Both the position numbers and the translations under genes were made by a program. Shown piece by piece: positions 6,511-56,029 of a DNA stretch of 64,000 nt. The stretch is from a bacterium. GTDB lineage: Bacteria > Patescibacteriota > Dojkabacteria > JAKAPS01 > JAJZLI01. Position 1 is the stretch's first letter. Each line of letters starts with the position of its first letter. Under the pieces are notes generated by a model. That model was not told the origin of the DNA. It did not search any database and was given only the letters and a program-made list of their open reading frames with translations. The stretch spans positions 6,087-70,086 of the forward strand of contig JAKAWT010000001.1 in the NCBI GenBank assembly GCA_021816845.1, in the 5' to 3' direction.

Positions 6511-6572
6511 ACTATTATTATAACAAATGGCTTCATAATAAACAATAAATTATATCTTCTATAAAAATAAGA

Positions 6573-7290: not shown

Positions 7291-9237
7291 CTATAAATTT
7301 ATTGATAGATCCTTTGTTATATAGAATGATTTATTCAAGGATGTAGATCCTGATCCAGAGGATCCTGATCCAGATTCAAAATTAATCTTCTCCCATTCTC
7401 CTTTAATTCCTGGTTGCTTTTGAATTAAATAATGAGTCATATTAATTCCTTTAGGTAGATAGTATGTTATTGTCATGGTACCCTTTGCTGGAGGATCTGA
7501 CTTTGAAAGACGAGGAAGTATCCTTATATGGTTACCAAAAACTGTTTTTCCTACAGTTGTATTGTTATAATCCTGCGTGAATCCATCAACGCCTTTCATA
7601 GATATTAGGGTGGATCCAAGAGGAACATAAATCCTAACCCACGCCATATATGGACCTACAAGCCAATTATCATATATAGCTGGATTAGTCCAAGTTATAC
7701 TAACACTCTGCTCATATCTACCATTTGATGCTTTTTTAATATTTGAAACCACCGTCTCTCCCATAAAATAATTATCTTTAGCTCCTGCAAGGTTTGCTTC
7801 CACTACCTGAAGATAATCACCTTTTACGGAGGTTGGTATTACCCCTCCCCAGTTATAATGGTTAATTAGATTCTCAGTCTTTGGGTTATTGAAATATAAT
7901 AAGATTTGTTTTTGATCAAGAGAATCAAAAACTGTTTTAATAACATTTGTTAAAGTATTACCTGTAGAATGAAACACTTTTGTTATAAGTTCATGCATCA
8001 TGACTGAAATAAAATCTTTTCTTTCATTTTGAGGAAGATTAGATTTTTCAGCCATATATTCCATATAGTAATTAGCATTATTAGATGTTAAAACAAGATT
8101 ATTCCCATATAAACTTGGCATTGTAATATTTCCAACAGCTTTTATCAGAGAATCTACAAACCATGTATTTATAAAAATAACCCCATTAATTTGTGGAGCT
8201 CTAGGTATTGAATTATAGAATTTATATATATTAGCTACAGATGTTGGAACATTAGGAGAAGTATTTGCATCCCTTAGATGCCAGTGGTAAGTTCCGTTAT
8301 AAACATATAATGGTTTTGGAGCAAGAGGTACGTAATGGACTACGTTTGATAGAGCATAAATATTTTGAGCTGATATTTGGCCTAAATTTCCATTATTAAA
8401 ATTAATAAATCCAAAGGCAGTCATAAAACCTCCCGTAGGTCTAATTTCGCCTGAATTTTGGAACATCAGAAGATACCTCGTAGGGGTAGGTACACCTAAT
8501 GCATTTTCAATAACATTTACTGATCTATCAAAGATTGGTAAATTTAACGATATACCGGAAAAAATACTTTTTAAAGAAGATAAGGTTATACCATGAGACT
8601 TTAATAAAGATTCTGGGAAATAATTAGGATTTATCTTTTGTATATATAAATTTGCTTTTGTAAAATATGGATCAGCTGTATCCAAGGCTGGACCAAGTTT
8701 TGGTAAGGAATGTACAAATGCAGATATCTTTTGTTTTCCAGATAGAACCTGTGCTGATTTTTGAGTACTTGTTTGATATCCATCTAGTGTTGCTAGATTT
8801 GACAAAGATGGCATCAAGGTTTGCAACCCAGAAACAGCATAATATCCCCCATCAAGTAAATCTACAGCATTGTTATAATATCCACTCGCTATGGGCACAA
8901 TAGAAAGATACCCTAAAGTTCTTAAATTCGACTGCATAGAGATTATATTAGACTTAATTGTAGGTACTTCACTAGAAATCCCAACAAAATCTTTTGATTT
9001 CTGATAAGTTTTTGCTTTCTCAATATTGGAATATAGAATATCAAAGTTACTTTTTAAAGATAAAAGAGGAAGAACTAGAAAGAAAACTAATAGTATTATT
9101 AATACTACAACAAAGGACACAGTAGCAATAAACCACCTTTTTTTTATAAAGGCCCATTTTTGTTTAGGCTGATATTGAGCTAAATTTATAACTGTCATAA
9201 CTGATTTAGTAAGCTCCTCTTTTTGAGAAAACTGCAA
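7291..9237 (-). CDS. large membrane-anchored extracytoplasmic protein, possibly DUF4012 family (associated with polysaccharide clusters)
   Basis: 648 aa. N-terminal TM helix at about residues 33-58. C-terminal SGSGSSGSGS linker encoded by GGATCC-type palindromes. Sits first in a sugar transferase/GT4 cluster. Confidence 0.4.
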   Translation of the reverse strand: MQFSQKEELTKSVMTVINLAQYQPKQKWAFIKKRWFIATVSFVVVLIILLVFFLVLPLLSLKSNFDILYSNIEKAKTYQKSKDFVGISSEVPTIKSNIISMQSNLRTLGYLSIVPIASGYYNNAVDLLDGGYYAVSGLQTLMPSLSNLATLDGYQTSTQKSAQVLSGKQKISAFVHSLPKLGPALDTADPYFTKANLYIQKINPNYFPESLLKSHGITLSSLKSIFSGISLNLPIFDRSVNVIENALGVPTPTRYLLMFQNSGEIRPTGGFMTAFGFINFNNGNLGQISAQNIYALSNVVHYVPLAPKPLYVYNGTYHWHLRDANTSPNVPTSVANIYKFYNSIPRAPQINGVIFINTWFVDSLIKAVGNITMPSLYGNNLVLTSNNANYYMEYMAEKSNLPQNERKDFISVMMHELITKVFHSTGNTLTNVIKTVFDSLDQKQILLYFNNPKTENLINHYNWGGVIPTSVKGDYLQVVEANLAGAKDNYFMGETVVSNIKKASNGRYEQSVSITWTNPAIYDNWLVGPYMAWVRIYVPLGSTLISMKGVDGFTQDYNNTTVGKTVFGNHIRILPRLSKSDPPAKGTMTITYYLPKGINMTHYLIQKQPGIKGEWEKINFESGSGSSGSGSTSLNKSFYITKDLSINL

Positions 9238-9844: not shown

Positions 9845-10958
9845 TTTTTATTATATTATTAATTTTATTTTCTAAATTCTTTTTGAATATATCCTTAGAA
9901 AATCTCCTTGCATTATCTATACACTCTATAGGGTTAGATGGATTATCATAAATCTTCTTTAATGCTTTTTCAAGAGACCTAGATCCAAGAGATGTATCTT
10001 CATAGAAAAAATATCCTGTGACCCCCTCTTTTACACTTTCCATAGCCCCATCCTTAAATAATGCTACTACACCTTTCCCACAGGCCTGGGCTTCAATAGG
10101 TACAAGCCCAAAATCTTCTGCCCCAGGAAAGATAATAGCTTTAGACTGATTTATTATATCAATCATATCATCATCCCCAACATTGCCCAAAAATTCAATA
10201 TTAGATGATGATATCTTCTCTAGTTGATTTTTATATCCACCATCACCTATTATTTTTAATTTATAGTTAAGTTTTATACAAGTTTTTATTGCTATATCAA
10301 TATTTTTATACTTTTCTAGTCTTGATACAATTAGAAAGTAATCTCCATCAGTGAATTTATCATTTTTTAAAAATTTATTTGTATCAACATACGGATATAT
10401 AACGACACTATCCCTCCTATAAAATTTCTTTACTCTCCTTGATACTGCATTTGATATTGTAAAAAGATGATCTACCCTTTGGGCTGATGCAAAATCAATA
10501 ATCCTTAAATAATTATTGATAAAATATAAAGGTATTTTTTTTAGACCAGAGAAGGTATCTTGTCTAGAGTTAGGTAATCCCCATAAAAATCTAGGGGGTG
10601 TTAATATATAAGATATATGTAGAGTTGTATCAGATATAACAATGTTTTTTGCAAAACCAGCTGTAAGAGATAACACAATATCGTACTCATCAAAATTAAA
10701 TTCTTCAAATGCTAATGGATATAAAGGTGTCATAAACGGCCCAAAATATTTAAATAGTTTATTATACTTGCTCTCTATAATATTATATTCTCTAAACTTA
10801 TCTGGAAGTTTCTCTTTAATATACAAAGTTGTAAAAATTGGGGCATTTGGAAAGACTTCCATAATAGCTTCAAGATGCCTCTCTGCACCACCATATATTT
10901 TAAGAAAATCACATACTATAGCAATTTTAAAATCTGAATTCTTTACATTTTTTTCCAT
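9834..10958 (-). CDS. glycosyltransferase family 4
   Basis: GT-B fold. E-x7-E-like C-terminal motif region (FPGAEDFGLVPIEAQACGKGVVA). Confidence 0.75.
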   Translation of the reverse strand: MEKNVKNSDFKIAIVCDFLKIYGGAERHLEAIMEVFPNAPIFTTLYIKEKLPDKFREYNIIESKYNKLFKYFGPFMTPLYPLAFEEFNFDEYDIVLSLTAGFAKNIVISDTTLHISYILTPPRFLWGLPNSRQDTFSGLKKIPLYFINNYLRIIDFASAQRVDHLFTISNAVSRRVKKFYRRDSVVIYPYVDTNKFLKNDKFTDGDYFLIVSRLEKYKNIDIAIKTCIKLNYKLKIIGDGGYKNQLEKISSSNIEFLGNVGDDDMIDIINQSKAIIFPGAEDFGLVPIEAQACGKGVVALFKDGAMESVKEGVTGYFFYEDTSLGSRSLEKALKKIYDNPSNPIECIDNARRFSKDIFKKNLENKINNIIKNGI

Positions 10959-19036: not shown

Positions 19037-21291
19037 AGGTAAATGAAATAATTAATAATAAAGTTATACTTAAAATTGCAGTTCCTAAGAACAATGATAA
19101 AACACCTTTAGCAGCAGAACAAATGTTTGCTTCATTACATGGAATTATAGGTGATAATAAAAAATCAGCAGAACACATAGGATTTGAGATAGTATCATCT
19201 AAAACTGGCATTTTATTCTTTGCTATAACTACAAGAAATTATAAAGATTTTGTTATGGGACAGATATATGCACAATATCCTCACGCAGAGATTGATGAAG
19301 TAAATGATTATACAGAATCTTTTAAACATTTTAAATATTTTGCAATATCAGAAATATCATTAAAGAAAAACTACATTCTACCCATAAAAACTTTTGCTAA
19401 TTTTGACGTTGATCCTTTGTCAGCATTAACTAATGCTATGATTAAGAATAATTCTGATAATCTTTCTTCAATACAAATATTATTAAGACCTATTAATGGG
19501 GGTTGGCATAATAAGGCAAAAAAATATATCAATAGCAGTCGAGGAGCAGATATTGGATCTAGTATAACTACGTCATTATTAAAAATTATCACATCAGAAA
19601 TAGTATCAAACAAGAATAAAACTACACAAGTATCAAAGCCTACACTATCAAGTTTAGAGCAAGGCGCCTTATCAGAAATAGAGAAGAAAATAACAAAAGT
19701 AGGATATGAGGTTTTAATAAGGATTATATCTCTATCAAACAATAGTTATGAGCCTGAAAATACCATATCTCATATACAGGCAGCATTCAATCAATATAAC
19801 TACCCTCATTTAAATGCCTTTGATGTAAAGAAAACTAAAGATAAAGGACATATAATATATCAACAATTTATAAATAGATATATGGGTAAAAAAATATCAA
19901 CAGTACTAAATACAGAAGAAGTAGCATCTTTATACCATTTACCAGACTTATCAGTAGAGACACCGTCTATAATATACTCCAAAGCAAAAAAAGCAGAACC
20001 ACCAATAAATCTACCAACAGAAAATGTTAACTATATTGGAATAACATCTTTTAGAGGCATGAGTAATAGATTTGGCATAAAGACAGAGGACCGAAGACGA
20101 CATATGTATATATTAGGGAAAACAGGCACGGGAAAATCTACGATGATAAAGAATATGGTGATTCAAGATATTATTAATGGTAAAGGCGTTGGTATATTTG
20201 ACCCTCATGGAGATCTAGTAGAAGATATCTTAAATTTTATACCTCCTCAAAGGATAAATGATGTTGTAATAATTGATCCATCTGATACTGAGTACCCTGT
20301 ATCTATAAACCTTTTAGAATTAAAAGATTTATCTTTAAAAGATCTTGTTGCTGATAATATAGTATCCGTTTTTAAAAAACATTTTGATTCTTGGGGACCT
20401 AGATTAGAATATCTTTTACACAACTGTATCCTTACTCTAATCCAAGTAGATAATACATCTCTACTTGGTATACAAAGGATTCTCGTAGATAAAATATATA
20501 GGGAAAAAGTATTAAAACAAATAGATGACCCTATACTATTAAGGTTCTGGAATGAGGAGTATACAGCAATGGAAAAAAATCCTAGACTTGCTTCTGAGGC
20601 AATAGCACCTATACAAAACAAAGTTGGTAGATTTCTATCTAGTCAAACAATGAGGAATATTGTAGGTCAGGTAACATCAACAATAGATCTTGAAGAGATA
20701 ATGAATAATAATAAAATTCTCATTGTAAATTTATCTCAAGGTAAAATAGGTGAAGAACAGGCTTCATTATTTGGAGGAATGCTAATAACAAGACTACAAT
20801 CTGCAGCTATGAGTAGAATAAAAATAAAAGATGAAGAAAAAAGAAATGATTTTTACCTTTATGTTGATGAATTTCAAGTTTTTGCAACTAATGCTTTTGC
20901 AAAAATATTATCTGAAGCTAGAAAGTTTAGACTAAATCTAATTCTAGCACACCAATATATAGCTCAACTAGATATTGATATCAAAGATGCTATATTCGGT
21001 AATATAGGTACTACAATATGTTTTGTTGTAGGTCCTCAAGATGCAGGAGAACTTGAGAAAGAATTTATGCCAGTATTTTCACAAGAAGATCTAATATCTC
21101 TAGAAAAACATCATTTTTATACAAAATTAATGATTGATGGTATGATATCTACCCCATTTAGTGCAATATCTGAAGATCTTAGATATACAAAAAATGATAA
21201 CAAAGATAAGGTTATAAAAGTTTCCAGAGAGAGATATGCAAGAAGCAAAAGTGATATTGAGGATAAGATATCAAGATGGACAAAAAATTAA
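19033..21291 (+). CDS. soluble P-loop ATPase of the TraD/VirD4/TrwB (type IV coupling protein / FtsK-HerA) superfamily
   Basis: Walker A ILGKTGTGKST; Walker B FYLYVDEFQVF; C-terminal ARKFRLNLILAHQYIAQL resembles the T4SS-DNA_transf/TraM-recognition region; no N-terminal TM; ATGA overlap with the antiporter gene. Confidence 0.55.
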   Translation: MKVNEIINNKVILKIAVPKNNDKTPLAAEQMFASLHGIIGDNKKSAEHIGFEIVSSKTGILFFAITTRNYKDFVMGQIYAQYPHAEIDEVNDYTESFKHFKYFAISEISLKKNYILPIKTFANFDVDPLSALTNAMIKNNSDNLSSIQILLRPINGGWHNKAKKYINSSRGADIGSSITTSLLKIITSEIVSNKNKTTQVSKPTLSSLEQGALSEIEKKITKVGYEVLIRIISLSNNSYEPENTISHIQAAFNQYNYPHLNAFDVKKTKDKGHIIYQQFINRYMGKKISTVLNTEEVASLYHLPDLSVETPSIIYSKAKKAEPPINLPTENVNYIGITSFRGMSNRFGIKTEDRRRHMYILGKTGTGKSTMIKNMVIQDIINGKGVGIFDPHGDLVEDILNFIPPQRINDVVIIDPSDTEYPVSINLLELKDLSLKDLVADNIVSVFKKHFDSWGPRLEYLLHNCILTLIQVDNTSLLGIQRILVDKIYREKVLKQIDDPILLRFWNEEYTAMEKNPRLASEAIAPIQNKVGRFLSSQTMRNIVGQVTSTIDLEEIMNNNKILIVNLSQGKIGEEQASLFGGMLITRLQSAAMSRIKIKDEEKRNDFYLYVDEFQVFATNAFAKILSEARKFRLNLILAHQYIAQLDIDIKDAIFGNIGTTICFVVGPQDAGELEKEFMPVFSQEDLISLEKHHFYTKLMIDGMISTPFSAISEDLRYTKNDNKDKVIKVSRERYARSKSDIEDKISRWTKN

Positions 21292-22718: not shown

Positions 22719-22734
22719 ATTGATTCCTCCTGGA

Positions 22735-24099
22735 TCAAGATCCTTTGATAAAATTAAAGCCAAGATAATCTCTCAAAACACTAGGTACCTTTATACTACC
22801 ATCTTTTTGCTGATAATTTTCCATTATAGCTATTAATGTCCTACCTATAGCACTACCTGTATCGTTGAGAGTGTGAGCAAATTGCAACTTTCCATCACTA
22901 TCCTTGTATCGGATATTAAATACTCTAGACTGGAAATCTGAAGCATTTGTATCGGTACCAACTTCCATAAATTTTTGTTGAGAAGGTATCCATGCCTCAA
23001 TATCATATTGTTTTGATGCAGCATAATATCCAGAATCACCACTACATTTTAGAATTACATGATAAGGGATTTCTAAAGATTCCCAAAACCATTTATTTAT
23101 ATCTAATAATTTCTCAAATACCTTATTTGACTCTTCTATAGATGACACAGCGCCCATCTCTAATTTATCAAATTGATGCAACCTTTTTATACCCTTAACA
23201 TCTTTCCCCCAAGATCCAGCTTCAGATCTAAAACAGCTGGTTACAGCAAAAAAATATTGAGGAAGATCATTTTCATTTAATATCTTATCCATAAAATACC
23301 CAAAATTAGATGGTTCTGAAGAGCCAACAAGGTATAATCTATTATGCTCTTCTGTATAATCTTTTTCTATTGCATATATCTGATCCTGATCAGCTGGAAA
23401 ATGGCTTGTCCCATACAATGCTCTATCTTTTACCAATAGAGGAGGAACTAGAGGCATAAATTTTTCTTTAATAAGTTTTCTAGATAAAAAATCAATAATA
23501 GCCATCTGAAGCAATACTGCTTCATTCTTTAGATATACAAATCTAGATCCAGACACTAAAGCTCCCTGATTAGTATCTATCATGTCCAAATCCCTTCCTA
23601 ATTCTAAATGATCTTTTATTTTGAAATCATGACTATCAGCATGAACGATATGCTCTGGCATATATTTTTTTGAAGCATCAAACATTCCAAGTTTATTTTT
23701 CTGAAGTTCACCATATTTTGGAGTCCATGCATAGATTTCAACATTATCTTCTTCACCAGATCCTACAGGAACATCTTCAGACAACATATTAGGAATCCAA
23801 TTGATAAGAGAGTTAAATTGTAGATTAATTTCTTTAAATTGTATATCTAATTTATCCCTTTCTTCTTTTATTTTTTTACCTTTTTCCCTTAACTTTAAAT
23901 TATGAGAAGATTCTTCCTGGAAAGCTTCTTTTGCAATTTTGTTACGTTCTTCATTTAAATTATTAATTTTTTGAATTATTGAAATTCTTTTAGAATCTAT
24001 TTCAAGGAGTTTATCAAGGTTGGATGGGTCAACCTTTCTAGAAATCATATTTTTCCTTACAGAATCTCTATTTTCTCTTATATATTCTATAGATAGCAT
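22735..24099 (-). CDS. serS: serine--tRNA ligase
   Basis: N-terminal coiled-coil arm and class II core (FRSEAGSWGKD, GSAIGRTLIA). Confidence 0.9.
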   Translation of the reverse strand: MLSIEYIRENRDSVRKNMISRKVDPSNLDKLLEIDSKRISIIQKINNLNEERNKIAKEAFQEESSHNLKLREKGKKIKEERDKLDIQFKEINLQFNSLINWIPNMLSEDVPVGSGEEDNVEIYAWTPKYGELQKNKLGMFDASKKYMPEHIVHADSHDFKIKDHLELGRDLDMIDTNQGALVSGSRFVYLKNEAVLLQMAIIDFLSRKLIKEKFMPLVPPLLVKDRALYGTSHFPADQDQIYAIEKDYTEEHNRLYLVGSSEPSNFGYFMDKILNENDLPQYFFAVTSCFRSEAGSWGKDVKGIKRLHQFDKLEMGAVSSIEESNKVFEKLLDINKWFWESLEIPYHVILKCSGDSGYYAASKQYDIEAWIPSQQKFMEVGTDTNASDFQSRVFNIRYKDSDGKLQFAHTLNDTGSAIGRTLIAIMENYQQKDGSIKVPSVLRDYLGFNFIKGS

Positions 24100-34569: not shown

Positions 34570-35544
34570 TTAATAGTGATATGCCAATCCTGCTACAGTG
34601 ACAGCATTATCTGTACATAATTCTATTGGAGGGAAATACAGGCTAAATTCATCCCTGTACTTTTCAAATTCTTTTCTTATCCTTAAATTTGCAGCAACCC
34701 CTCCAGCTATTGTGATTGTATTTATATTAAGAGTTCTTGCTGCTTTTATAGTTTTCCTAACTAATATATCTGCAACTGCAAACTGAAATGATGCAAGTAC
34801 ATCTTCCCTATTTACACCTTTATGACTTTTCATATAATATAATACTGACGTTTTCAACCCTGAGAATGAGAAATTAAAATCATTAGATCCTATCATTGGC
34901 CTTGGAAAATCTACAAAATTTTCATTACCAGAATCAGATATCTTTGATATATGTGGTCCTCCAGGATAAGGTAGTCCAAACATTCTTGCAACCTTATCAA
35001 ATGCCTCCCCTGCTGCATCATCAACAGTTTGACCTATAACTTCCATGGATGTTGCTGATAATACTTTTATTATCTGAGTATGACCTCCAGATATTAGTAG
35101 AGAAATATGTGGAAACTCTATATTAGGATTTGTTAGAATATTAGCATATACATGAGCATATAAATGATTAATATTAACAATTGGTAAACCTTTTGTCTTG
35201 GATCTAGATCCCCAGGATCCAGATCCCTTGGGTCTAGACCCCTTGGCAAAGCCATGGGCAAAAGAAACCCCTACTAATAAGGCTGGAACCAATCCTGGAT
35301 TCAGGGTTACAGCTATCTTTGAAATTTCAATATTAGAATTTCTATTTATTATCTTATCAATTAATAGTGGTAAAACTTCAATATGCATTCTTGAGGCTTT
35401 TTCAGGAACAACTCCACCAGTATCAACATGATCTTGAGAAGATAACAGAGAATCTATTATCACAAAACCATTCTTTACTATTGCAACTCCAGTATCATCA
35501 CAAGATGTTTCAATGCCTAATATATTAATATCACTTTTTTTCAT
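34570..35544 (-). CDS. tsaD: tRNA N6-adenosine threonylcarbamoyltransferase TsaD, with a low-complexity insertion
   Basis: N-terminus ILGIETSCDDTGVAIV; His pair (HLYAHVYA); about 16 extra aa (KGSRPKGSGSWGSRSKTKG) relative to canonical TsaD, encoded by GGATCTAGATCC-type palindromes. Confidence 0.85.
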   Translation of the reverse strand: MKKSDINILGIETSCDDTGVAIVKNGFVIIDSLLSSQDHVDTGGVVPEKASRMHIEVLPLLIDKIINRNSNIEISKIAVTLNPGLVPALLVGVSFAHGFAKGSRPKGSGSWGSRSKTKGLPIVNINHLYAHVYANILTNPNIEFPHISLLISGGHTQIIKVLSATSMEVIGQTVDDAAGEAFDKVARMFGLPYPGGPHISKISDSGNENFVDFPRPMIGSNDFNFSFSGLKTSVLYYMKSHKGVNREDVLASFQFAVADILVRKTIKAARTLNINTITIAGGVAANLRIRKEFEKYRDEFSLYFPPIELCTDNAVTVAGLAYHY

Positions 35545-36056
35545 AATGTTTTTATGTATAGAGGAAGTACATATAAAGGATCATCAAATTCTCTACTCTT
35601 TATTTTCCTTTTTATAATTTTAAAAAAAATATTATAATCTAGCTCAATAGGTATAAATTCCTCATCATGTATAATTTCATAACCTTTAACGTTGGATCTA
35701 GATTCTGAGGATTTAGATCCATTTTTTATAAATATATTTCCCCTTCCTGCAGATACAATCTCAGGCTTTCCCATTTCTTTGAGTACATCAAATGATGATA
35801 TAGCCACAATAGGAGTTTTCCTTGCAAGTGAGTATCCTTTAACATAAGCTAGAGATGCTCTAGTACTTGTAAAAGAACCAGGCCCTTTATTAATACCTAT
35901 AAATCTCACGTTACCAAACACATCGAAAATATTGTCTAGAGATAAGAATACATTATTAAGTTCACCTTCAAACTTTTTTTCAACCTTATCATCCTTATAT
36001 AAAAAACATTTTAGTTTATCTTTTGTAGCATCAATTATTAAGATTTCCATATTCAA
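35541..36056 (-). CDS. tsaB: tRNA threonylcarbamoyladenosine biosynthesis protein TsaB (YeaZ-like, short)
   Basis: 171 aa; FIGINKGPGSFTSTRASLAYVKG; adjacent to and overlapping tsaD and tsaE. Confidence 0.65.
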   Translation of the reverse strand: MNMEILIIDATKDKLKCFLYKDDKVEKKFEGELNNVFLSLDNIFDVFGNVRFIGINKGPGSFTSTRASLAYVKGYSLARKTPIVAISSFDVLKEMGKPEIVSAGRGNIFIKNGSKSSESRSNVKGYEIIHDEEFIPIELDYNIFFKIIKRKIKSREFDDPLYVLPLYIKTL

Positions 36057-36528
36057 CCTCTATTTCCCTAACATTATTACTTCTAGAACCATATGATTCC
36101 AATTGTACATGTTTAAAATATATTTTTATAATTTCACCCTGATTGGAGAATTTTGATCCTAAAGATGCAGATTTAAGACTATCTATAATATGATTAAATT
36201 TATCTGCCCACTCAATAATTACCACACCATGCCCCAAAACATCATAAAAATCTACTCTCTCCAAATCCTCTGGATCATCTAACCTATACCAGTCAAAATG
36301 ATATAGAAACATACCATTATTTTCATGATCTGCCCTTATTATAAAGGTAGGAGATGTTATCTCGTCTTCGAACCCTAATGATTTAGCTAACATTTTTGTA
36401 AATGTAGTTTTACCTGCCCCTAGATCCCCGTATAAACATAAAATTTCATTACCCTTTATGCTCTTTGCTAATTTTTCTGCAACTCTATTTGTATCAGAAA
36501 CATCTTCTGATTTATATTTCATTATCAT
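36031..36528 (-). CDS. tsaE: tRNA threonylcarbamoyladenosine biosynthesis ATPase TsaE
   Basis: Walker A GDLGAGKTTFTK; 165 aa. Confidence 0.75.
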   Translation of the reverse strand: MIMKYKSEDVSDTNRVAEKLAKSIKGNEILCLYGDLGAGKTTFTKMLAKSLGFEDEITSPTFIIRADHENNGMFLYHFDWYRLDDPEDLERVDFYDVLGHGVVIIEWADKFNHIIDSLKSASLGSKFSNQGEIIKIYFKHVQLESYGSRSNNVREIEVEYGNLNN

Positions 36529-37067: not shown

Positions 37068-38028
37068 TATAGAACCTTCTCCATATAATCTTATACACTG
37101 GTATTATGTATGGTATCCTACGTAACCCAGGAATTAGGGGTAGAAATGTAATGATTGCAATCAGCAGAGAGAAAGTTGCAAAGGCCATAAGATCTGCTGC
37201 TGGTGAATTAGCATAAAAAGGTGTTTGGTATAAAGATGTATAAAATACAAGCCACCAAGGACCAGGATAAGGACCAGTTTCTTTTAATATACCCCACTCT
37301 CCTCCAAGCATATTTAGACTCGCAGCCTTAGCTTGCAGTGGTGCTCCTTGAAGGAATAGTAATCTATTTTGTTCATTATAGGTATATACTCCATTATTAT
37401 CTACATTTTCTCTTGTCAATGCTCTTGAGAACAAACCACTTTGTCCTAATTTTAAAAGTTCATTTAACATTTGTACTACTGGTCCATAGTTACCATTAGG
37501 AAATATAACAAGCCCATCTTCATATCTAGCATTAGGAAGAGCTTTTAGGGTATTCTGTTCCCAAATATTTTGTTGTCTTTTTGTTGCATTATTATATTCG
37601 TTAAGTATTAAACTGATGTTAGGGTTAATACTTGATTCCATCTGCAATGGAATTATCACAAAATCATTTTTTGTATTAATTGGCAATGTTACTCCTTCAA
37701 TACCTCCAGGCGATATTGGCCCTATATTTTGCGCTGTGCCATTGTTATTAAATGGAGGTCCATATGTTGCAATCGCACTTGTACCCATAAGATCATGTAG
37801 TGTAGTTGTAACAAAACCAATTGGGTGATTTTTAGCATACCCTCTAACTGATAAAGGTGGGGTATTAGGAGATTTTAGAAATATAGAAAGCAGTATAACT
37901 AAAACTATAATCGCAATAAAGCTCACAGATGCTTCTTTCACTAAATCTGATTCTTTCAAACCTATATTTTGTGAATCTAGACTCCTTGAGTCAAGACTCT
38001 TTGTATCAACATTTCTATTATCCATCAT
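37042..38028 (-). CDS. cytochrome b C-terminal-domain / subunit IV-like protein fused to a large Cys-free extracytoplasmic domain
   Basis: N-terminal TM, about 230-aa ectodomain, then PGPWWLVFY (PEWY-like Qo motif) and 1-2 TM helices; overlaps the cyt b6-like gene by 11 nt. Confidence 0.4.
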   Translation of the reverse strand: MMDNRNVDTKSLDSRSLDSQNIGLKESDLVKEASVSFIAIIVLVILLSIFLKSPNTPPLSVRGYAKNHPIGFVTTTLHDLMGTSAIATYGPPFNNNGTAQNIGPISPGGIEGVTLPINTKNDFVIIPLQMESSINPNISLILNEYNNATKRQQNIWEQNTLKALPNARYEDGLVIFPNGNYGPVVQMLNELLKLGQSGLFSRALTRENVDNNGVYTYNEQNRLLFLQGAPLQAKAASLNMLGGEWGILKETGPYPGPWWLVFYTSLYQTPFYANSPAADLMAFATFSLLIAIITFLPLIPGLRRIPYIIPVYKIIWRRFYNEQKRSKN

Positions 38029-39450: not shown

Positions 39451-39768
39451 ATGGAAATTAATCAAATACAAAATAACGAAACCTTAGAAGAAACATTACC
39501 AGGAGTAATAATGCTCATGGGAAAAGGAGACCCTTGGAAAGATGAAGCTGAAATGGCTGCACTAAGATCAATGGCAACATCAACAGCACTGCTATGGCAC
39601 TTAGCTCCAGATTCAAGAAAGCCATATATACTGTCAACCGCAGCTAATATTGAAGATAGTGATAACCCTCAATGTCAAGAATACTCAGATGTTTTATCAT
39701 CGCAACTTTTAGATCTTGGATCTGGATCCCTTGGAATAGATCCTAAATATTTTATTTTTAGAGATTGA
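39451..39768 (+). CDS. hypothetical protein (GC-elevated, no homology recognised); possibly a gene remnant
   Basis: 105-aa ORF followed by non-coding sequence holding an acylphosphatase-like fragment (…GKGRIEIVAFHNKERVKKLLSFL) in another frame. Confidence 0.25.
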   Translation: MEINQIQNNETLEETLPGVIMLMGKGDPWKDEAEMAALRSMATSTALLWHLAPDSRKPYILSTAANIEDSDNPQCQEYSDVLSSQLLDLGSGSLGIDPKYFIFRD

Positions 39769-40158: not shown

Positions 40159-41349
40159 TTATAGAGTTGAATACAAAGTACTATCATCTGATCCTAGAAT
40201 AACTATTATATTCCCAGTATAAAAAGATGGGTTGTGTTTAATTAATTTTACATTACTTGGACCTAAAATATCTATTATCTGATTCACTTCATATTTATAT
40301 TGAGAATAATTGCCAACATATATCTCATCTTTTGTTAGTGTTTGATTATATATACCTATAGATGATATTGTACCTCCAAGGTTTTGTATATATCTTGAAA
40401 ACTGATATACTGCATTATTTGATGAGGAAGAATCTAATATTTGTACTGAAACGCCACTCTTTGCAAATGTTGTACTTGTAAAATTAGACCTTATAAATGC
40501 ATCAATATTTTTTAAATTAATCAAACCACTAGCCTTATATTCTAATAAATTAATATTTTGAATTTTGAGTTTATATATAGCATATAGTAGATTAAATATA
40601 TTTTGACCTTCTATATTAGATCTGAAAATAGTTTGTATATATCCTATATCTGAACTAGTATTAAGCAAACTTAAAGGTGATAGTATATTTGATAAAATAC
40701 CTTGAAAAATAAGATTTTTAATATACAGATTATCAAATGTATCTGATTTTGAAGATAGTATTATTATTGCTTGGCCTGCAGTTAATGTATTTTCTCCATC
40801 ATTTATTGGAACACCGTCAATATTAGTACTTAAAGATGACACTATGGATATATTTCTAGTTCCTAGTAAAGAACTAGAACTTAGTGATATATATCCATCT
40901 ATTGGTATTGCTAAATTATATCTTATAACTTTTAAAAGAAGATTCATGCCATCTTTTGGAGCATTTAAATTTCCAATTGGATAAATAGTTCTTAAAGTCT
41001 GATTTGATGAGAGAGAAGTATAAAAGTTCATATTAGATGGTAAAGCCATCAAAGTTGTAGATGTTCCAGGAGTAACAGTTAGGATAGCATTATATGTATT
41101 AACGGTGAATCCATTATCTTTAGATTCATAAACAATGAGTATACTGGTGGTGTTATTAGATGATACTGTAGCTAGTCCACCACTATATCCAGAATCTCCA
41201 TTAATAGTTATATTATTTAATCTTGTAACATTAGAAAACAAGAAATAAATAATATATAAGAATATTATAATAGCAATTATTATTATAAGGTGACTTGATT
41301 TTCTTCTCTTTTTATAGGCTTGCATAGTATTTATATAAAACATTAACAT
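40159..41349 (-). CDS. LytR-CpsA-Psr (LCP) family cell-envelope polymer transferase with LytR_C-like C-terminal domain
   Basis: N-terminal TM; LCP core blocks (ILIVYESKDNG…NTYNAILTV…TLMALPSNM…KDGMNLLLKVIRYNLAIPIDGY); C-terminal VQILDSSSSNNAVYQFSRYIQNLGG. Confidence 0.65.
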   Translation of the reverse strand: MLMFYINTMQAYKKRRKSSHLIIIIAIIIFLYIIYFLFSNVTRLNNITINGDSGYSGGLATVSSNNTTSILIVYESKDNGFTVNTYNAILTVTPGTSTTLMALPSNMNFYTSLSSNQTLRTIYPIGNLNAPKDGMNLLLKVIRYNLAIPIDGYISLSSSSLLGTRNISIVSSLSTNIDGVPINDGENTLTAGQAIIILSSKSDTFDNLYIKNLIFQGILSNILSPLSLLNTSSDIGYIQTIFRSNIEGQNIFNLLYAIYKLKIQNINLLEYKASGLINLKNIDAFIRSNFTSTTFAKSGVSVQILDSSSSNNAVYQFSRYIQNLGGTISSIGIYNQTLTKDEIYVGNYSQYKYEVNQIIDILGPSNVKLIKHNPSFYTGNIIVILGSDDSTLYSTL

Positions 41350-41390
41350 TAAAAATTTACTTTGTAAAATATTTTTAGTAGAATAAGCTT

Positions 41391-42158
41391 ATGTTTACCA
41401 AGTTTAAATCAATATTTTTCCCTACTAAGGAAAATAAATATCATTCACCAATATTATCCTACAAAGTACTCCTGATTTTTATAGTGTTCTTATCTTTTAT
41501 CAATCTTGCACTCCCCTCTTTTGCATATGGCTCTGGTATAAACAATAGTCAGATATTTATAAGTTTAAATAAGATCAGACAAGATAACAATGAGTCCACA
41601 TTATACATGAACCAAAACTTGGATCTATATGCAAAAAATATAGTTAATAATATGTTTCAATATCAGTATTTTGGAAGAATAAATCCGGTAAAAGGTACAT
41701 CTTTCTATTCATTTGTAAATATGAATAAATTCAGCAATATGAATTTGATTCTATTTAAAAACTATGTCTCACAATCATCATTTTCAAATACACTAATACA
41801 GAATTATAAAAATATTATTACCAGTCCCAATATTAATGATATAGGCATTTATGAAGGCAATGGAGTTTTAAATGGAAATAATGTCAATATTATTGCCATT
41901 CTAACAGCTAAAGGTGTTCCTTCAAATATTATTCCGTTATTTTCTAATAATAATCAAAGTAGTTTTATAAATTATAAAATTATTGAATATACCGATCTTT
42001 TTGTACTACTTTTTATAACATTACTTCTTATCACTGATGTGATAGTTACTTATTATTACAAAATTGAAAGAGAAAAAATGATATCAAATATGCATTTACC
42101 TCTACTTTTTGTATCTATAATAGTTGTATTTGTACTTATAATAGGGATATCTTTATGA
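41391..42158 (+). CDS. CAP/SCP (YkwD-like) domain protein with C-terminal TM anchor
   Basis: Signal/TM at the N-terminus; LNKIRQDNNESTLYMNQNLDLYAKNIVNNM and NIITSPNINDIGIYEG blocks resemble CAP domain motifs. Confidence 0.45.
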   Translation: MFTKFKSIFFPTKENKYHSPILSYKVLLIFIVFLSFINLALPSFAYGSGINNSQIFISLNKIRQDNNESTLYMNQNLDLYAKNIVNNMFQYQYFGRINPVKGTSFYSFVNMNKFSNMNLILFKNYVSQSSFSNTLIQNYKNIITSPNINDIGIYEGNGVLNGNNVNIIAILTAKGVPSNIIPLFSNNNQSSFINYKIIEYTDLFVLLFITLLLITDVIVTYYYKIEREKMISNMHLPLLFVSIIVVFVLIIGISL

Positions 42159-42979
42159 AAAATATAATAAGATATGAAATAGAATTTACCACAAGTATAT
42201 TTTTTATACTCTTAGAAATATTATTTTTTGTAATATTGTTATCTTCAATAACTATAGTAGTTGCTTATGTAATACTATCAACAATATTTTTCATCCTTTT
42301 TATAATTGATAGTATAAAAAGATTTAGAAAATATATAAAACAGATTAATTCTGAGGAAGCTAAAAAAATAAATAAAAATATCTATTTGTTTAATCAGATA
42401 ATTTTACCAATTGCAACATATATTGGAACTCTATCTTTTATACTTTTAAACACATTGGACTTATTAACTATCCAATTTTTTATAGTACTATCCACTGCAC
42501 TCTTCTATATTCTTATAAAACATATAGAAGTATATCTTGAAACTTTTGAATTTGATGAGAGAACCCACTATATAATAAATGGAGTCAAAGTATACATTTT
42601 CTTTCTTTTATCATATTCAGTTTTACAAATATCTTCTATTATAAATTTATCTAACCTCCTTGTTCCTGTGTTCATATTTTCTATATCTTTAACTCTACTG
42701 TTATTACTTATACAAAGAAATAAACAATTCCTAAATAGTACTATCTGGTATGCTATATTAATATCATTTGTGATCGGATGCTCTGTATTCTTGATGGATA
42801 TATTTGTTAATAATGCAATAATAACTGCATTCACAATAACTTCTCTCTTTTACTTTTTTGAAGCAATTCTACACCATAAATTAGAGAATAAGCTATCTAA
42901 TGAACTCATAATAGAATATATCCTATTTTTAGTCATTATATTCCTTATAATTAAAGGGTTATTTGGAATTTATGTGTAG
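42155..42979 (+). CDS. polytopic membrane protein, unknown function
   Basis: 274 aa, about 8 TM helices, ATGA overlap with the CAP-domain gene. Confidence 0.4.
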   Translation: MKNIIRYEIEFTTSIFFILLEILFFVILLSSITIVVAYVILSTIFFILFIIDSIKRFRKYIKQINSEEAKKINKNIYLFNQIILPIATYIGTLSFILLNTLDLLTIQFFIVLSTALFYILIKHIEVYLETFEFDERTHYIINGVKVYIFFLLSYSVLQISSIINLSNLLVPVFIFSISLTLLLLLIQRNKQFLNSTIWYAILISFVIGCSVFLMDIFVNNAIITAFTITSLFYFFEAILHHKLENKLSNELIIEYILFLVIIFLIIKGLFGIYV

Positions 42980-42992
42980 AAACTATTTAGAA

Positions 42993-44261
42993 TCAAAATA
43001 CTATTGCAGAAAAGATACCCGATTCTGAATATGTAATACCACCACCCATATATTGTCCAAATGTCAAATTTGGACCAAACCAAGGATCTTGCATTGTACC
43101 TGTAGCACCTAAAGGACCAGTCATGGTAACAAAATGTGTACCAAATTGATTATCATTGGTATATAAACCAACGACTACTGGGGTAGATGGTGATGCATAT
43201 GTATTAATTAAATCTATTGATGATGTATTACCAAAAGATTCTGTTTGTATACCAGGAAAATCACTAAAAATTGCACCGTTACTGTCCCAATATTGAGAAG
43301 AATTTACATCATATGGATTAAATCCTGTATTGCCAATAAGATTTTCAGCTATAATAGCTGCAATTAATGAACAGCCAGCGTTCGAGTAAGTGTATCCAGT
43401 ATTAGCCAGATCAATATTACCCCATGCTGGACACTCTTGTGAATAATATGCACCTATATTACAAGGGGCATTTCCAATTACTCCTGGCGTTCCAGATTGT
43501 AATGCAAGCCTGTCAATTTGGGCAAGTATACTTTGCATCTTGGCTTGAGTTTGAGCATTTTGTGAACTTAAACTATTATTTACATTTGCAAGAGAATTTT
43601 TTTCTTGTTGTAGTGTACTTTGATCAGCAAGTAATGTTTGTTGTTGTGTTTCAAGACTGTTATATAAATTAGTAGCATCCTTCTGATTTAATGCTACTGT
43701 AGCTTTATTCGAATTAAGTCTTGAAATTATAACAATTAATTCTTGCGCTAACTGATTCTGATGTTGGATTGATGCATTAAAATATTCAACTGATGCAAGA
43801 GCGTTATTTATATTAGGGTTACCTATAAACATTTCTGCAGGAGGAATATATGTTTGCTCATATCCAGATTTAGCATTACTATTTATTTTACCCTTTATAA
43901 CAAGAATTTTTGATTGTTCTTGGGCAATTTGTATATTTAGCTGAGCAATTTGATTATTTAACTGATTTATCTGTACTTGTTCATTAGAAATGAGTGCCTG
44001 TTTTTGTAAGATCAATTGCTGATAAGTATTAATCTGTGGTATAAGATTTGCAATTGCTCCGTTATTAGCATTGATTTTTGATTGATTCTGATTTATTAAA
44101 CCTTCTAACTGTTGATATTGTTGTTGCAAGGAATTTAGAGAATCACCAGCACCTACAGTATGAGGACTAGTAATTAATAGGGTAGAAAAAAATGATAGTG
44201 TTATAATTGAAAATAAAACTATCCTAAAAGACTTATTTTTATACAACTTAAATATTCTCAT
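42993..44261 (-). CDS. PcsB-like secreted protein: Gln-rich coiled-coil N-terminal domain plus C-terminal Cys/His (CHAP or NlpC/P60-like) putative peptidoglycan hydrolase domain
   Basis: Signal peptide; long heptad Q/N/L-rich region; C-terminal domain with candidate Cys (NAGCSLIAA) and His (GTHFVTMTG); immediately downstream of ftsE-ftsX. Confidence 0.55.
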   Translation of the reverse strand: MRIFKLYKNKSFRIVLFSIITLSFFSTLLITSPHTVGAGDSLNSLQQQYQQLEGLINQNQSKINANNGAIANLIPQINTYQQLILQKQALISNEQVQINQLNNQIAQLNIQIAQEQSKILVIKGKINSNAKSGYEQTYIPPAEMFIGNPNINNALASVEYFNASIQHQNQLAQELIVIISRLNSNKATVALNQKDATNLYNSLETQQQTLLADQSTLQQEKNSLANVNNSLSSQNAQTQAKMQSILAQIDRLALQSGTPGVIGNAPCNIGAYYSQECPAWGNIDLANTGYTYSNAGCSLIAAIIAENLIGNTGFNPYDVNSSQYWDSNGAIFSDFPGIQTESFGNTSSIDLINTYASPSTPVVVGLYTNDNQFGTHFVTMTGPLGATGTMQDPWFGPNLTFGQYMGGGITYSESGIFSAIVF

Positions 44262-48898: not shown

Positions 48899-49822
48899 AT
48901 GCAAGAGAGCATGCCCGGGAGATCTCCGGCAAGTCCATTAGCTTCAGTTCTATTTCTACTAATTATAGTTGTTGGATTTTTTATTGGACTTCCTTTATTC
49001 TCATCAAATTTTCAACTTGCGGTAACATTATGGGTAATATTTTTCTTGCTTGCACTTTTAGTCTCAATATCTGTACATACAGCAGCAGAATGGGATAGAG
49101 CAACAGTTTTAAGATTAGGAAAATTTGCTCGAATATCTGGACCAGGGATATTTTTTATAATACCTGTTTTTGAAACTATTCCATATTGGATAGATTTAAG
49201 GACAATGTCAGTACCAATCAAGGCGGAACAGACATTAACCAAGGATAGTGTTCCAGTATCAGTTGAAGCAATTTTGTTCTTTAGAGTTATCAACGCAAAA
49301 ATGGCATCTCTAGCCGTTGCAGACTATTACAACTCAGGAATCCTTGCAGCACAAACTGCACTAAGAGATATTATAGGTAAGAGTGAATTATCCACCGTAC
49401 TATCAGAAAGAGAAAATATTGACGAGGCATTGAAAGTAGTCATAAGTAAAAGGGTAAGTCCTTGGGGTATTGAAGTTATATCTGTAGAAATGAGAGATGT
49501 TATTATTCCAGAGAATCTTCAAAATGCAATGAGTCAAAAAGCACAATCAGAAAGAGAAAGAGAATCTAGAGTAATCCTTGGTGATTCAGAAAGAATAATT
49601 GCAGATAGCTTCAGACAAGCAGCAGAAAAATACAGAGATAACCCTATGGCATTACATTTAAGAGCTATGAATATGCTATTTGAAGGTTTGAAAGAAAAAG
49701 GAGCGTTGATGATAGTCCCATCTTCGGCCCTAGATTCAATGAATCTAGGTACTCTATCTGGGCTTGCATCTTTAGGTGGTGAAAGATTAAATCAAGATAA
49801 ACCAAAGAATCCAAAAAAATAA
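48899..49822 (+). CDS. SPFH/Band-7 (stomatin/prohibitin-like) membrane protein
   Basis: Two N-terminal TM helices, then an SPFH domain (VSVPIKAEQTLTKDSVPVSVEAILFFRV…) and a coiled-coil C-terminus. Confidence 0.75.
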   Translation: MQESMPGRSPASPLASVLFLLIIVVGFFIGLPLFSSNFQLAVTLWVIFFLLALLVSISVHTAAEWDRATVLRLGKFARISGPGIFFIIPVFETIPYWIDLRTMSVPIKAEQTLTKDSVPVSVEAILFFRVINAKMASLAVADYYNSGILAAQTALRDIIGKSELSTVLSERENIDEALKVVISKRVSPWGIEVISVEMRDVIIPENLQNAMSQKAQSERERESRVILGDSERIIADSFRQAAEKYRDNPMALHLRAMNMLFEGLKEKGALMIVPSSALDSMNLGTLSGLASLGGERLNQDKPKNPKK

Positions 49823-54229: not shown

Positions 54230-56029
54230 TCAAACTACATGTGGTTTTAGATCAATAATTTTAAGTTGTAGAGTGTGTTTATCTCTCCATATATTGTCCT
54301 CCAGAGTAAAAACAATATCAATATATGAAAAATTTATTATCTGATCAGGTTTATATATTGATGCAAACCACACAGCATCAAATATATTTTCTGAATTTTT
54401 ATCTGTAATTTTCATTTTTATAAAATTATCATTAGAACCTATATTAAATACTGACAATACTTCAGCTCCGGTAATTTTAAAAATAGGTACAGTATTCCCC
54501 CTACCATGAGGTTCTAAAATCTTAATTTTATGGAGAAAATCAAAATTTATATCGCCCAAAGATATCTCAGTATCTACATAAACTACTTTAAAGTCATTTT
54601 CAAGATTTAAGGATTTATTAAAATATGTTTTTGCAAATTTATTAAGTTCAAGGTGCAATTTCTCTATATTTTCCTTTTTTATTTTCAAACCACAAGCTCC
54701 AGCATGCCCACCATACGATTCTAAAATATTTGAGGATCTAGATCTTAAGGATCCAGATCCTGAGGATTGGTCTAGTGCCTCAATAATATTAAATCCATCT
54801 ACAGACCTTCCTGAGCCTATATACAGATCACCTTTTTTGGTTAGTGCAATAGTAGGCTTTCCGGTATCAGATGTTAGTCTACCTGCAACAAGGCCTACAA
54901 TACCTTCATGCCATGTATCATCATAAACAAGATTGAAAAAATTGTTTTTATCGATTTTGGATTTAGCTTGCTCTACAGCATACTTTGTTAACTTTTGCCT
55001 TTCAATATTCATATTATGTAATTTTTTTGATAATTTCTCTGCAACTTCTTTACTTTGTGTATTTAATAATCTAACCCCATCTAGAGCATCATATAATCTT
55101 CCTGTAGCATTAATCTTAGGGCCTAATATATATCCTATCTTATAAACGTCAATATTATCGATTTCAGATATACTAATAAGTGCATCTAAACCTTTCCTCT
55201 TTCTCATATTAATAACATTAAGACCTTTTTTTACAATTGATCTATTTTCTAGAGTTAGATTAGACACATCACAAACAGTAGCCAACGTAGCAAGATCATA
55301 ATATTCACTTATATCAAAATTTTTATATGAAGATGTTTTAGATAATGCCTCAACAATTTTCAATGCAACTCCTGCCCCACATAAATCTGGATAGTTATAA
55401 CCTATCATAGGATGAATTATTGCATATGCACTAGGGAGGATTTCAGGAGGTAGGTGGTGATCTGTAATTATAAGGTCTATTCCTAGATCTTTAGCAATTT
55501 TAGCATTCTCAACATCTCTAATACCACAATCTACAGTTATAATTAGAGTTATACCTTCTTTCGCTGCTTTTTCTATCTGATCCTTATTAAGACCATATCC
55601 ATCCGTAAATCTGGACGGGATAAATGGTCTTACATCAGCTTTCATCTTGTTATATAGAAAATCCCATAAAATTGAAGTTGCACATATACCATCAACATCA
55701 TAATCTCCATAAATCTGTATTTTTTCCCTGGATCTAGATCCATGAGACTTTACAGCTTTATTTATTCTCATAACAACACGTTTCATATCTTTAAATTTAT
55801 AGGGATCTCTATTTTTTAATATCACAGGATCTATTTCATCATAAAGAAAAGCTTTTAACTCCTCTAGACTAGAATCTTTTTTTAATATACCTCTGTTATA
55901 TAAAAGTTGGATTATAATATCATCCAAACTTAAATCTCTATATAAAGATTTATCATTTTGATTTAAATCCTTTATATCTAGGTCCAGACCCAGGTCTGTT
56001 ATTTTAGGGTATAATTTCCATTGAGCCAT
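54230..56029 (-). CDS. recJ: single-stranded-DNA-specific exonuclease RecJ
   Basis: DHH motifs (YGDYDVDG, DLIITDHH), DHHA1 region; two low-complexity palindrome-encoded insertions. Confidence 0.8.
   Translation of the reverse strand: MAQWKLYPKITDLGLDLDIKDLNQNDKSLYRDLSLDDIIIQLLYNRGILKKDSSLEELKAFLYDEIDPVILKNRDPYKFKDMKRVVMRINKAVKSHGSRSREKIQIYGDYDVDGICATSILWDFLYNKMKADVRPFIPSRFTDGYGLNKDQIEKAAKEGITLIITVDCGIRDVENAKIAKDLGIDLIITDHHLPPEILPSAYAIIHPMIGYNYPDLCGAGVALKIVEALSKTSSYKNFDISEYYDLATLATVCDVSNLTLENRSIVKKGLNVINMRKRKGLDALISISEIDNIDVYKIGYILGPKINATGRLYDALDGVRLLNTQSKEVAEKLSKKLHNMNIERQKLTKYAVEQAKSKIDKNNFFNLVYDDTWHEGIVGLVAGRLTSDTGKPTIALTKKGDLYIGSGRSVDGFNIIEALDQSSGSGSLRSRSSNILESYGGHAGACGLKIKKENIEKLHLELNKFAKTYFNKSLNLENDFKVVYVDTEISLGDINFDFLHKIKILEPHGRGNTVPIFKITGAEVLSVFNIGSNDNFIKMKITDKNSENIFDAVWFASIYKPDQIINFSYIDIVFTLEDNIWRDKHTLQLKIIDLKPHVV

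Follow-up and report, generated by a model that had tools for sequence, protein, structure and literature searches.

Twelve-base-pair palindromic units inserted in frame, with a 3-bp flanking direct repeat, in housekeeping genes of one Patescibacteria clade

Several kinds of sequence are relevant to the 12-bp palindromic units described here, which lie in housekeeping genes of a 64,000-nucleotide stretch (hereafter the window) of a Patescibacteria genome. Nearly precise excision remnants, for example those of Tn10, are palindromic and consist of two terminal-repeat tips still enclosed by the target duplication; they are rare laboratory events at single loci, not recurrent genome-wide insertions into coding sequence. 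The cyanobacterial palindrome HIP1 (GCGATCGC) gains its copies by substitution in existing codons and, like uptake sequences, occurs at roughly 1 per kb. Low-complexity insertions of the Plasmodium type are compositionally driven and length-variable, and reflect the codon bias of the genome. [quoted passage not shown] Rickettsia palindromic elements (RPEs) are about 150 bp long, within a class of about 100-150 bp, and their conserved peptide runs to tens of residues (PMC10969869).

A preliminary description of the window had pointed out short palindromes recurring in frame in tsaD, tsaB, tsaE, recJ, serS and other genes, and had likened them to RPEs. We find that the strong sites among them share a 12-bp core, are inserted in quanta of 15 bp together with a 3-bp duplication, turn over among close relatives, are restricted to one clade and occupy tolerated loops of essential genes.

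Enrichment of the palindrome and its insertion among relatives

The window belongs to an AT-rich genome (29% GC); the closest named matches of its TsaD and RecJ are from Patescibacteria, with Dojkabacteria as the nearest named class. The core of the unit is GGATC-NN-GATCC, in which a pair of inverted 5-bp arms encloses a 2-nt centre of free sequence, mostly TG or TA, and its usual reading is GGA TCT [A/G]GA TCC, giving G-S-[R/G]-S. Units occur singly or in arrays of two or three, with an exact period of 15 bp made up of the core and a 3-nt spacer.

The window holds seven perfect copies of GGATC-NN-GATCC where base composition predicts about 0.011, and 187 kb of DNA of the clade holds 29 where 0.033 are predicted; the arms thus have the form of the terminal inverted repeats of a MITE, and this was the sole palindrome of the arm-NN-arm form to stand out. 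With up to two mismatches, GGATCYAGATCC gave 43 matches against 6.6 ± 3.5 in dinucleotide shuffles, and CTAGATCC is the most over-represented 8-mer of the window (16 versus 0.95). When synonymous codons were shuffled with the proteins held fixed, the exact motif was found 5 times against 0.1, and 12 times against 1.8 with up to one mismatch. Since the excess persists under this permutation, the signal lies in the DNA and not only in Gly/Ser-rich peptides. The comparison of counts with expectation proposed in the preliminary description therefore yields clear enrichment in dinucleotide and synonymous-codon shuffles alike. Other GC-containing palindromes, with the GGATC family excluded, stood at the synonymous-shuffle expectation, so that we are dealing with one specific sequence family and not with a general tendency to make palindromes; a genome-wide palindrome-forming bias was rejected on this ground. 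Outside the inserts the motif itself is near the synonymous-shuffle expectation, and its density is about 1 per 10 kb.

The window was compared with syntenic sequences of its relatives L001 (GCA_021805885.1), L002, L003 and L036 (ENA ERZ27237304/200), L004 (GCA_054637275.1) and L035 (JGI 3300045129). Their concatenated proteins are 88-91% identical to those of the window, with a 4-fold-site identity of ~0.60-0.62, and every internal indel was catalogued. Inserts are 5, 10 or 15 codons long, and unit insertions account for about 12-13 of roughly 18 catalogued indels of at least 4 amino acids. Presence or absence varies in tsaD (two sites), tsaB, tsaE, open reading frame (ORF) 39451, recJ (several sites), miaA, an RF1-type release-factor (PCRF/RF-1) gene and rpoB, which amounts to insertion polymorphism, as in MITEs, among genomes 88-95% identical at the protein level. 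Alignment with orthologs, another check that had been proposed, thus identified the strong units as lineage-specific in-frame insertions in housekeeping genes.

The 3 nt on either side of the arrays form direct repeats, as at the flanks of MITEs. Seven of 31 arrays have perfect repeats against 1.6 in permutations (P=0.0004), and the flank triplets sum to 54 matching bases against 30.4 ± 4.5 (P<5e-5); control triplets one step further out gave no direct-repeat signal. The empty allele holds a single copy of the triplet in 9 of 9 filled-versus-empty comparisons, the pattern expected of insertion at a cut with a 3-nt stagger. The target-site signature sought in the preliminary description is accordingly present as a 3-bp duplication. 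Each event adds 12+3=15 bp, or 27+3, or 42+3. These lengths account for every insert being a whole number of codons in any phase.

In tsaD the three palindromes that had been noticed are all present, about 9 nt to the left of the interval 35209-35251 first given for them (Table 1). In the sense direction the array reads AAG GGGTCTAGACCC AAG GGATCTGGATCC TGG GGATCTAGATCC AAG and encodes KGSRPKGSGSWGSRSK on the minus strand (KGSRP KGSGS WGSRS K); its plus-strand flanks are the CTT triplets 35197-35199 and 35242-35244. The resulting 15-amino-acid insert (site 1) is found in the window and in L001, where it reads GGATCTGAATCC CAC GGATCTGAATCC CAC GGATCTGGATCC. It is absent from L002 and L004, from orthologs at 83-87% identity and from every distant TsaD, as claimed when it was first said to have no counterpart in the canonical protein. 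L004 has an insert of its own at a different position (site 2), AAT GGATCTGGATCC AAA GCATCTGGATGC. In an AlphaFold2 model of the window TsaD (mean predicted local distance difference test score, pLDDT, 86.8), the insert forms a loop between the helix 86-101 and the strand 122-126, just before the metal-binding His motif, and insert residues 105-115 have pLDDT below 50. The earlier suggestion that units sit at surface loops is supported for TsaD, where the loop is predicted to be disordered.

The neighbouring genes behave in the same way. The 10-amino-acid insert of tsaB occurs in the window only and is absent in L001, L002 and L004. For tsaE, which had been listed at 36076-36095, the array is decayed and lies instead at the position given in Table 1; L001 carries an intact orthologous array of three units, GAATCTAGATCC agt GAATCTAGATCT gga GGACCTAGGTCC, and the site is empty in L002. 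In recJ, the two-unit array (site 2) is flanked by TGA..TGA on the plus strand, and its 10-amino-acid insert is found in the window only, the site being empty in P0122/L035, P0123/L036 and all distant RecJ. The single recJ unit (site 1) is present in the window and in L035 (AGA GGGTCTGGATCT AGG) and absent from L036 (TCT AGG) and from distant RecJ. The insert of ORF 39451 is likewise confined to the window, the L002 ortholog reading GAT CTA GGT. Conversely, miaA is without units in the window but has a pair of them in L036 and a single decayed one in L035, and the RF1-type release-factor gene has a single unit in L035 only.

Table 1. Positions and sequences of palindromic units and unit-like features in the window
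Feature	Position	Strand	Sequence and remarks
tsaD, three-unit array	35200..35241	(-)	+ strand: GGATCTAGATCC-cca-GGATCCAGATCC-ctt-GGGTCTAGACCC
tsaB, two-unit array	35694..35720	(-)	sense: AAT GGATCTAAATCC TCA GAATCTAGATCC AAC
tsaE, decayed two-unit array	36145..36174	(-)	AAA TCT GCA TCT TTA GGA TCA AAA TTC TCC
recJ, two-unit array	54734..54760	(-)	sense: TCA GGATCTGGATCC TTA AGATCTAGATCC TCA
recJ, single unit	55730..55741	(-)	GGATCTAGATCC (HGSRS)
ORF 39451 (105 amino acids), single unit	39718..39729	(+)	GGATCTGGATCC; flanks CTT 39715-39717 and 39730-39732
Two-unit array, 15-bp period	37972..38001	(-)	variant arms GAGTC-TT-GACTC, GAGTC-TA-GATTC
GT4 glycosyltransferase gene, probable decayed single unit	9975..9986	(-)	sense: CTT GGATCTAGGTCT CTT; flanks duplicated (+ strand AAG..AAG)
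DUF4012 protein, C-terminal region, irregular cluster of GGATC-type hexamers	7339..7371	(-)	encodes ESGSGSSGSGSTS
serS/hpf junction, unit	22732..22743	(-)	GGATCTTGATCC (sense), centre TT

A scan of 185,579 species genomes for the tandem pattern gave 27 hits, of which 7 are separate loci in one metagenome-assembled genome (MAG), 'clean1586', and the other 20 are unrelated simple repeats. Units of the same kind lie in rpoB, a NifS-like gene, an RluD-like gene and other genes of this MAG. An RpoB 95% identical to that of the MAG lacks the insert, the empty allele reading GAG AAA GAA and the filled one GAT AAA (GGATCTGGATCC GAC GGATCTGAATCC) AAA GAT. The relative with the empty rpoB allele, L042, has a single unit in rpoC, AAA-GGATCTGGATCC-AAA, seen without an empty allele for comparison. 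No genes common to the window clade and to clean1586 and L042, which form a second set of genomes, were found in the loci compared. Relatives with 64% TsaD identity had zero units in 37 kb, and among 120 homologs each of TsaD and RecJ the GS[GR]S inserts are confined to clade members; the trait is restricted to one clade. A metagenome-wide (JGI) scan for the tandem pattern gave two hits, both unrelated GS-repeat proteins at 34-45% GC, and a scan of viral contigs gave one irrelevant hit. A literature search found no paper describing the motif or such insertions in Patescibacteria. The clade restriction, the exact 15-bp period and the 3-bp flanking repeat had all escaped the preliminary description.

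An assembly, amplification or linker artefact could be suspected because all sequences come from MAGs and because the motif holds common laboratory restriction sites (BamHI, BglII, XbaI-like). We consider this scarcely credible. Diverged arrays occupy the same sites in independent studies and samples, both between the window and L001 (tsaD, tsaE) and between the window and L035 (recJ); identical copies recur in several assemblies of the window's own genome; and the units lie in frame with target duplications.

Origin and maintenance of the units

Codon and position statistics were obtained from 35 units oriented by host gene. Ser codon 4 is TCC in 33 of them, a codon that makes up only 6.8% of Ser codons; core position 6 is T in 34, and at position 7 A and G occur in 17 units each and C in one. 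Variability at third codon positions does not exceed that at first and second positions, and G-to-A at positions 2 and 8 makes up most of the arm changes. The cores are ~94% identical to consensus, and the spacers within arrays are mostly unrelated to one another. The signal is thus at the level of DNA and not of peptide.

These statistics bear on the possibility that Gly/Ser low-complexity linkers expanded by slippage and that the palindrome is an accident of the commonest codons (GGA TCT, complement AGA TCC). GGA, TCT and AGA are indeed the top Gly, Ser and Arg codons, and in the TsaD model the insert falls in a disordered loop. Slippage does occur, as the two units of L001 tsaD that are identical including the spacer (GGATCTGAATCC CAC, twice) imply. 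Ordinary slippage also operates in the clade outside the units: at ~13490 of L036, relA/spoT (the ortholog of window 52255-54216) contains a plain 12-bp tandem duplication, CTTGACTTAGGT/CTTGATTTAGGT (LDLG LDLG). As an account of the units, however, linker expansion is already largely refuted, and we hold it to be very unlikely. The excess survives synonymous shuffling, codon 4 is nearly always the rare TCC, and spacers differ where cores agree. Inserts appear at seedless sites, such as between gct and aaa in tsaD, in gag aaa gaa in rpoB and between ttt and aaa in miaA, and they are flanked by 3-bp repeats. Symmetric arm changes bring in Pro, Cys and Ala, and at least 115 other TsaD and RecJ homologs from equally AT-rich relatives have no inserts.

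Four units within arrays have paired arm changes (GGGTC..GACCC, GGACC..GGTCC, GCATC..GATGC and GGAGC..GCTCC), which retain arm complementarity and alter amino acids to Pro, Cys or Ala; GAGTC..GACTC at 37972 adds a further pair. Under independent decay, about 0.25 paired variants would be expected by our estimate from the ratio of perfect to single-arm-mutant units (29:21). Two-unit arrays fold as 11-12-bp stems, the recJ RNA having -17.8 kcal/mol (z -4.2). Single units gave no significant fold and did no better than shuffles, and a hairpin function of single units was rejected for this reason.

Such symmetry raises the possibility that the cores are made de novo during replication, by fold-back or template switch at stalled forks or by nickase- or restriction-stimulated palindrome synthesis at GGATC, with the 3-nt spacer as hairpin loop. 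Quasi-palindrome template switching is known to preserve symmetry by paired changes, as seen here; neighbouring units can form a 12-bp stem closed by a short loop; and no transposase was found. As leads only, AlwI-type IIS and nicking enzymes recognise GGATC, and a polymerase together with a restriction or nicking enzyme can make tandem palindromes in vitro. Nevertheless, we regard an origin from replication as quite unlikely. A polymerase-only process should use local sequence, yet palindromes in general are not in excess in the window and the same core is found at every site. A hairpin origin of the arrays, which would give alternating orientation, was rejected, as asymmetric units within arrays lie in direct orientation and the spacers show no complementary alternation. 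Fold-back does not predict flanking direct repeats with a single copy in empty alleles, and the window encodes no such nuclease.

A functional DNA or RNA motif under selection or molecular drive, whether a dimer-binding site, an uptake-type signal, a HIP1-like methylation-linked palindrome or an mRNA hairpin, is in our judgement unlikely; on such a view, location in genes would be what the motif is for and no side effect. The dyad-symmetric 5+2+5 layout is what a site bound by a homodimer would have. Conservation is higher in cores than in spacers within arrays, and also between the orthologous tsaD arrays of the window and L001 (one clear pair), in which cores differ at 6 of 36 positions and spacers at 5 of 9. 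The rare TCC is kept despite AT mutation pressure, arrays form stable hairpins, and an identical core occurs in at least two genome sets. Against this, the copies arise as 15-bp insertions with a duplicated triplet and not by substitution, are near expectation outside inserts and amount to just ~1 per 10 kb. Conserved G-S-x-S peptides are not written with the codons of the motif: recA FGSGS is GGA TCT GGA TCT, and serS GSRF lacks those codons too. Compensated arm changes would give new half-sites, intolerable to a sequence-specific protein, and single units do not fold significantly.

The link to a methylation or restriction context suspected in the preliminary description finds no support in the window. 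GATC (219) and CTAG (183) are at or slightly above the ~173 expected by our own composition calculation, neither avoided nor strongly enriched. The window and its syntenic flanks yielded no transposase, restriction enzyme or DNA methyltransferase, and neither a cognate methyltransferase nor an uptake receptor is encoded in the 64 kb of the window. For the window and its flanks, the restriction/methylation link was rejected on this evidence.

The reading we favour, with middling confidence, is that the units are a clade-restricted family of miniature palindromic insertion modules with a terminal inverted repeat and target-site duplication, or the scar of a larger element. Insertion would resemble transposition: DNA would be cut with a stagger of 3 nt, the palindromic module joined and the gaps filled in to leave the direct repeat. 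These steps would be catalysed by an enzyme whose gene lies in another part of unit-bearing genomes. Alternatively, the core could be two terminal-repeat tips left by nearly precise excision of a larger element. Since 12+3=15, every insertion would leave the reading frame intact. The 31 perfect units are in the G-S-x-S phase in 23 cases, in the D-x-D-P phase in 7 and in the third phase, where a TA centre creates TAG, in 1; selection would remove the TAG-creating phase and most copies in the D-L-D-P phase. The copies that remain would give G-S-[G/R]-S peptides, lodged in disordered loops at the surface of proteins that are otherwise conserved. Neighbouring cores can pair as an 11-12-bp hairpin, and this pairing probably drives template-switch homogenisation, which would keep cores palindromic while spacers drift. 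The inserted peptides themselves are probably without function.

A number of points weigh against insertion modules of this kind. The evidence comes entirely from MAGs, a total of only ~210 kb. In the ~200 kb examined there was no transposase, integrase or nuclease candidate, and where a full-length element bounded by GGATC...GATCC and by matching flanks was sought, all pairs retrieved were array-to-array or due to chance; neither the window nor the ~200 kb of clade loci yielded a cognate transposase or autonomous element with these terminal repeats. To our knowledge, a 12-bp element with 5-bp arms is far below the size of any known transposase substrate. Site sharing is discordant: tsaD site 1 and recJ site 1 are common to the window and L001/L035, the miaA and recJ-486 inserts are common to L035 and L036, and the nearest kin of L035/L001, by a slight margin, is L036/L002 and not the window. 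The sharing thus contradicts the species tree and requires precise loss or hot-spot reinsertion at the same triplet. Internal spacers equal the flanking repeat in only 2 of 20 cases, and spacers that differ from the flanks are predicted neither by reinsertion into the duplicated target nor by simple 15-bp slippage. The strong phase bias must be attributed to selection alone. Finally, the orthologous tsaD pair hints at core constraint or homogenisation, which a neutral selfish scar does not need.

A bolder version, which we advance tentatively and think doubtful, holds that the 12-bp palindrome, or the 27- and 42-bp arrays, are the mobile entity itself, a 'nano-transposon' that has 5-bp terminal inverted repeats, makes a 3-bp target duplication and is moved in trans by an unrecognised enzyme. 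If true, this frame-neutral nano-transposon would be able to colonise even rpoB, rpoC, tsaD and recJ and would be the smallest mobile DNA known, showing that mobile DNA can be reduced to a dozen bases and still spread. Its length rule, by which element plus target duplication is a multiple of three, would permit life in essential genes. Patescibacteria would then have, in these units, a new and sequence-specific source of loop insertions in proteins, which in one of its clades would be the chief origin of multi-codon protein insertions. The units would also serve as a natural marker of recent insertion or excision in unculturable organisms, and as a handle on the insertion enzyme, whose gene distribution should match that of the units and whose substrate needs are possibly unusually minimal.

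Other unit-like sequences and neighbouring genes

Among the remaining rows of Table 1, the array at 37972-38001 reads KSLDS RSLDS in the other open phase, and the N-terminal segment that holds it is lacking in the L001 and L002 orthologs. Its arms GAGTC/GACTC are two paired changes away from GGATC/GATCC; GAGTC and GGATC are both sites of related type IIS and nicking enzymes, which for this array is possibly a coincidence. The GT4 sequence is, from its letters, a probable decayed unit. The spacing of the DUF4012 cluster is not 15 bp. At the serS/hpf junction the unit centre is the TGA stop of serS (GGA TCT TGA TCC), directly upstream of the hpf ribosome-binding site, and the L001 sequence at this junction is unrelated.

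The strong sites first listed in the window are real insertions; about one third of the list proved to be conserved catalytic or structural residues or weak matches. Two serS sites were rejected as insertions by ungapped alignment to solved SerRS, 23212-23229 being class II motif 2 (fRSEAGS) and 23539-23550 the conserved SGSRF. The recA sites 56949 (FGSGS) and 56722 (HALDP) and the secA site 33149 (DESRTPL) were rejected since they show no indel versus relatives. GT4 13675 and GT2 30416 are weak matches to the unit. The SPFH site at 48921, also counted among the units at first, has no indel and is a different palindrome that arose by substitutions. In this SPFH/Band_7 gene, codons 5-10 (48913-48930) form a GC-rich quasi-palindrome, CCGGGAGATCTCCGG with core GGAGATCTCC, which is unusual in a genome of 29% GC; the same codons are CCAGGAAGGTCAGCA in L035 and CCAGAAAGATCACCT in L036, so that the window palindrome is purely substitutional.

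A variant, GGATCTATATCC, is intergenic at 14556-14567 of L001 and 14881-14892 of L036, beside different genes, and could be either a decayed unit or something else. L039, a unit-free relative with 64% TsaD identity, has DDE_Tnp_1 (IS4/IS5-type) transposase genes at 1-144 and 6488-6784, which lie with several toxin-antitoxin pairs upstream of tsaE. The ends of these DDE_Tnp_1 elements were rejected as a source of the units, as the visible ends lack GGATC termini. In the window, four adjacent ORFs at 40159-44261 (396, 255, 274 and 422 amino acids) match no Pfam, NCBIfam or PADLOC family, the last having weak coiled-coil, SMC-like similarity. A short AbiEii-type nucleotidyltransferase toxin fragment (160 amino acids) adjoins a DUF6922 protein at 5651-6510, and the two are a possible type IV toxin-antitoxin pair. 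A 752-amino-acid HerA/TraD-like ATPase (DUF87, TrwB_AAD_bind; PADLOC 'mad8' 3e-16) is encoded at 19033-21291, among two-component-system and transporter genes.

Comparison with described systems

Low-complexity insertions of the Plasmodium type resemble the units in being lineage-specific, non-conserved hydrophilic loops in conserved enzymes, whereas here the core is fixed, relatively GC-rich and contains a rare codon. Simple tandem repeats and ordinary GS linkers differ in their spacers, which in the units are unrelated to one another and equal a flank in the 2 of 20 cases noted above, and in lacking a fixed TCC; the units are no ordinary GS expansion because of this rare codon, the seedless insertion sites and the flank repeats. 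HIP1 is also a short GATC-containing palindrome, hugely over-represented in coding regions of one lineage. The copies described here are not HIP1-like or uptake-like, because they are insertions with target duplication at a density ten times lower. Repetitive extragenic palindromic sequences and bacterial interspersed mosaic elements (REP/BIME) are mobilised by RAYT, are extragenic, form 20-40-bp imperfect hairpins and have no target duplication, in contrast to intragenic 12-bp units that have a 3-bp duplication and, when single, no significant fold. Excision remnants share exactly the layout triplet-GGATCN/NGATCC-triplet; here, unlike there, no parent element is seen.

The two closest systems are MITEs and RPEs. 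As in MITEs, the units have terminal inverted repeats and flanking direct repeats that fade with age, are present in multiple copies and vary in presence among close relatives. They differ from MITEs in being an order of magnitude shorter (12, 27 or 42 bp), in having essentially no internal sequence and no parent insertion sequence identified, and in that the strong copies lie in coding sequence. The comparison with RPEs made at the outset proved apt for behaviour, namely the in-frame colonisation of housekeeping genes. In both cases palindromic repeats are inserted many times, in frame, in unrelated housekeeping genes, and add peptide where the fold tolerates it (PMC10969869); in both, the hosts are host-dependent bacteria with small genomes. 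The units are roughly ten times shorter than RPEs, with a 12-bp core encoding 4 residues, 15-bp quanta, a clear 3-bp flanking duplication and short phased arrays, and they have no sequence relationship to RPEs and belong to a different phylum. The system thus combines, without an identified parent element and at about one tenth of the length of either, the architecture of MITEs with the behaviour of RPEs and a preference for coding DNA. A 12-base palindrome with a 3-base duplicated target looks like the smallest transposon-like insertion described so far.

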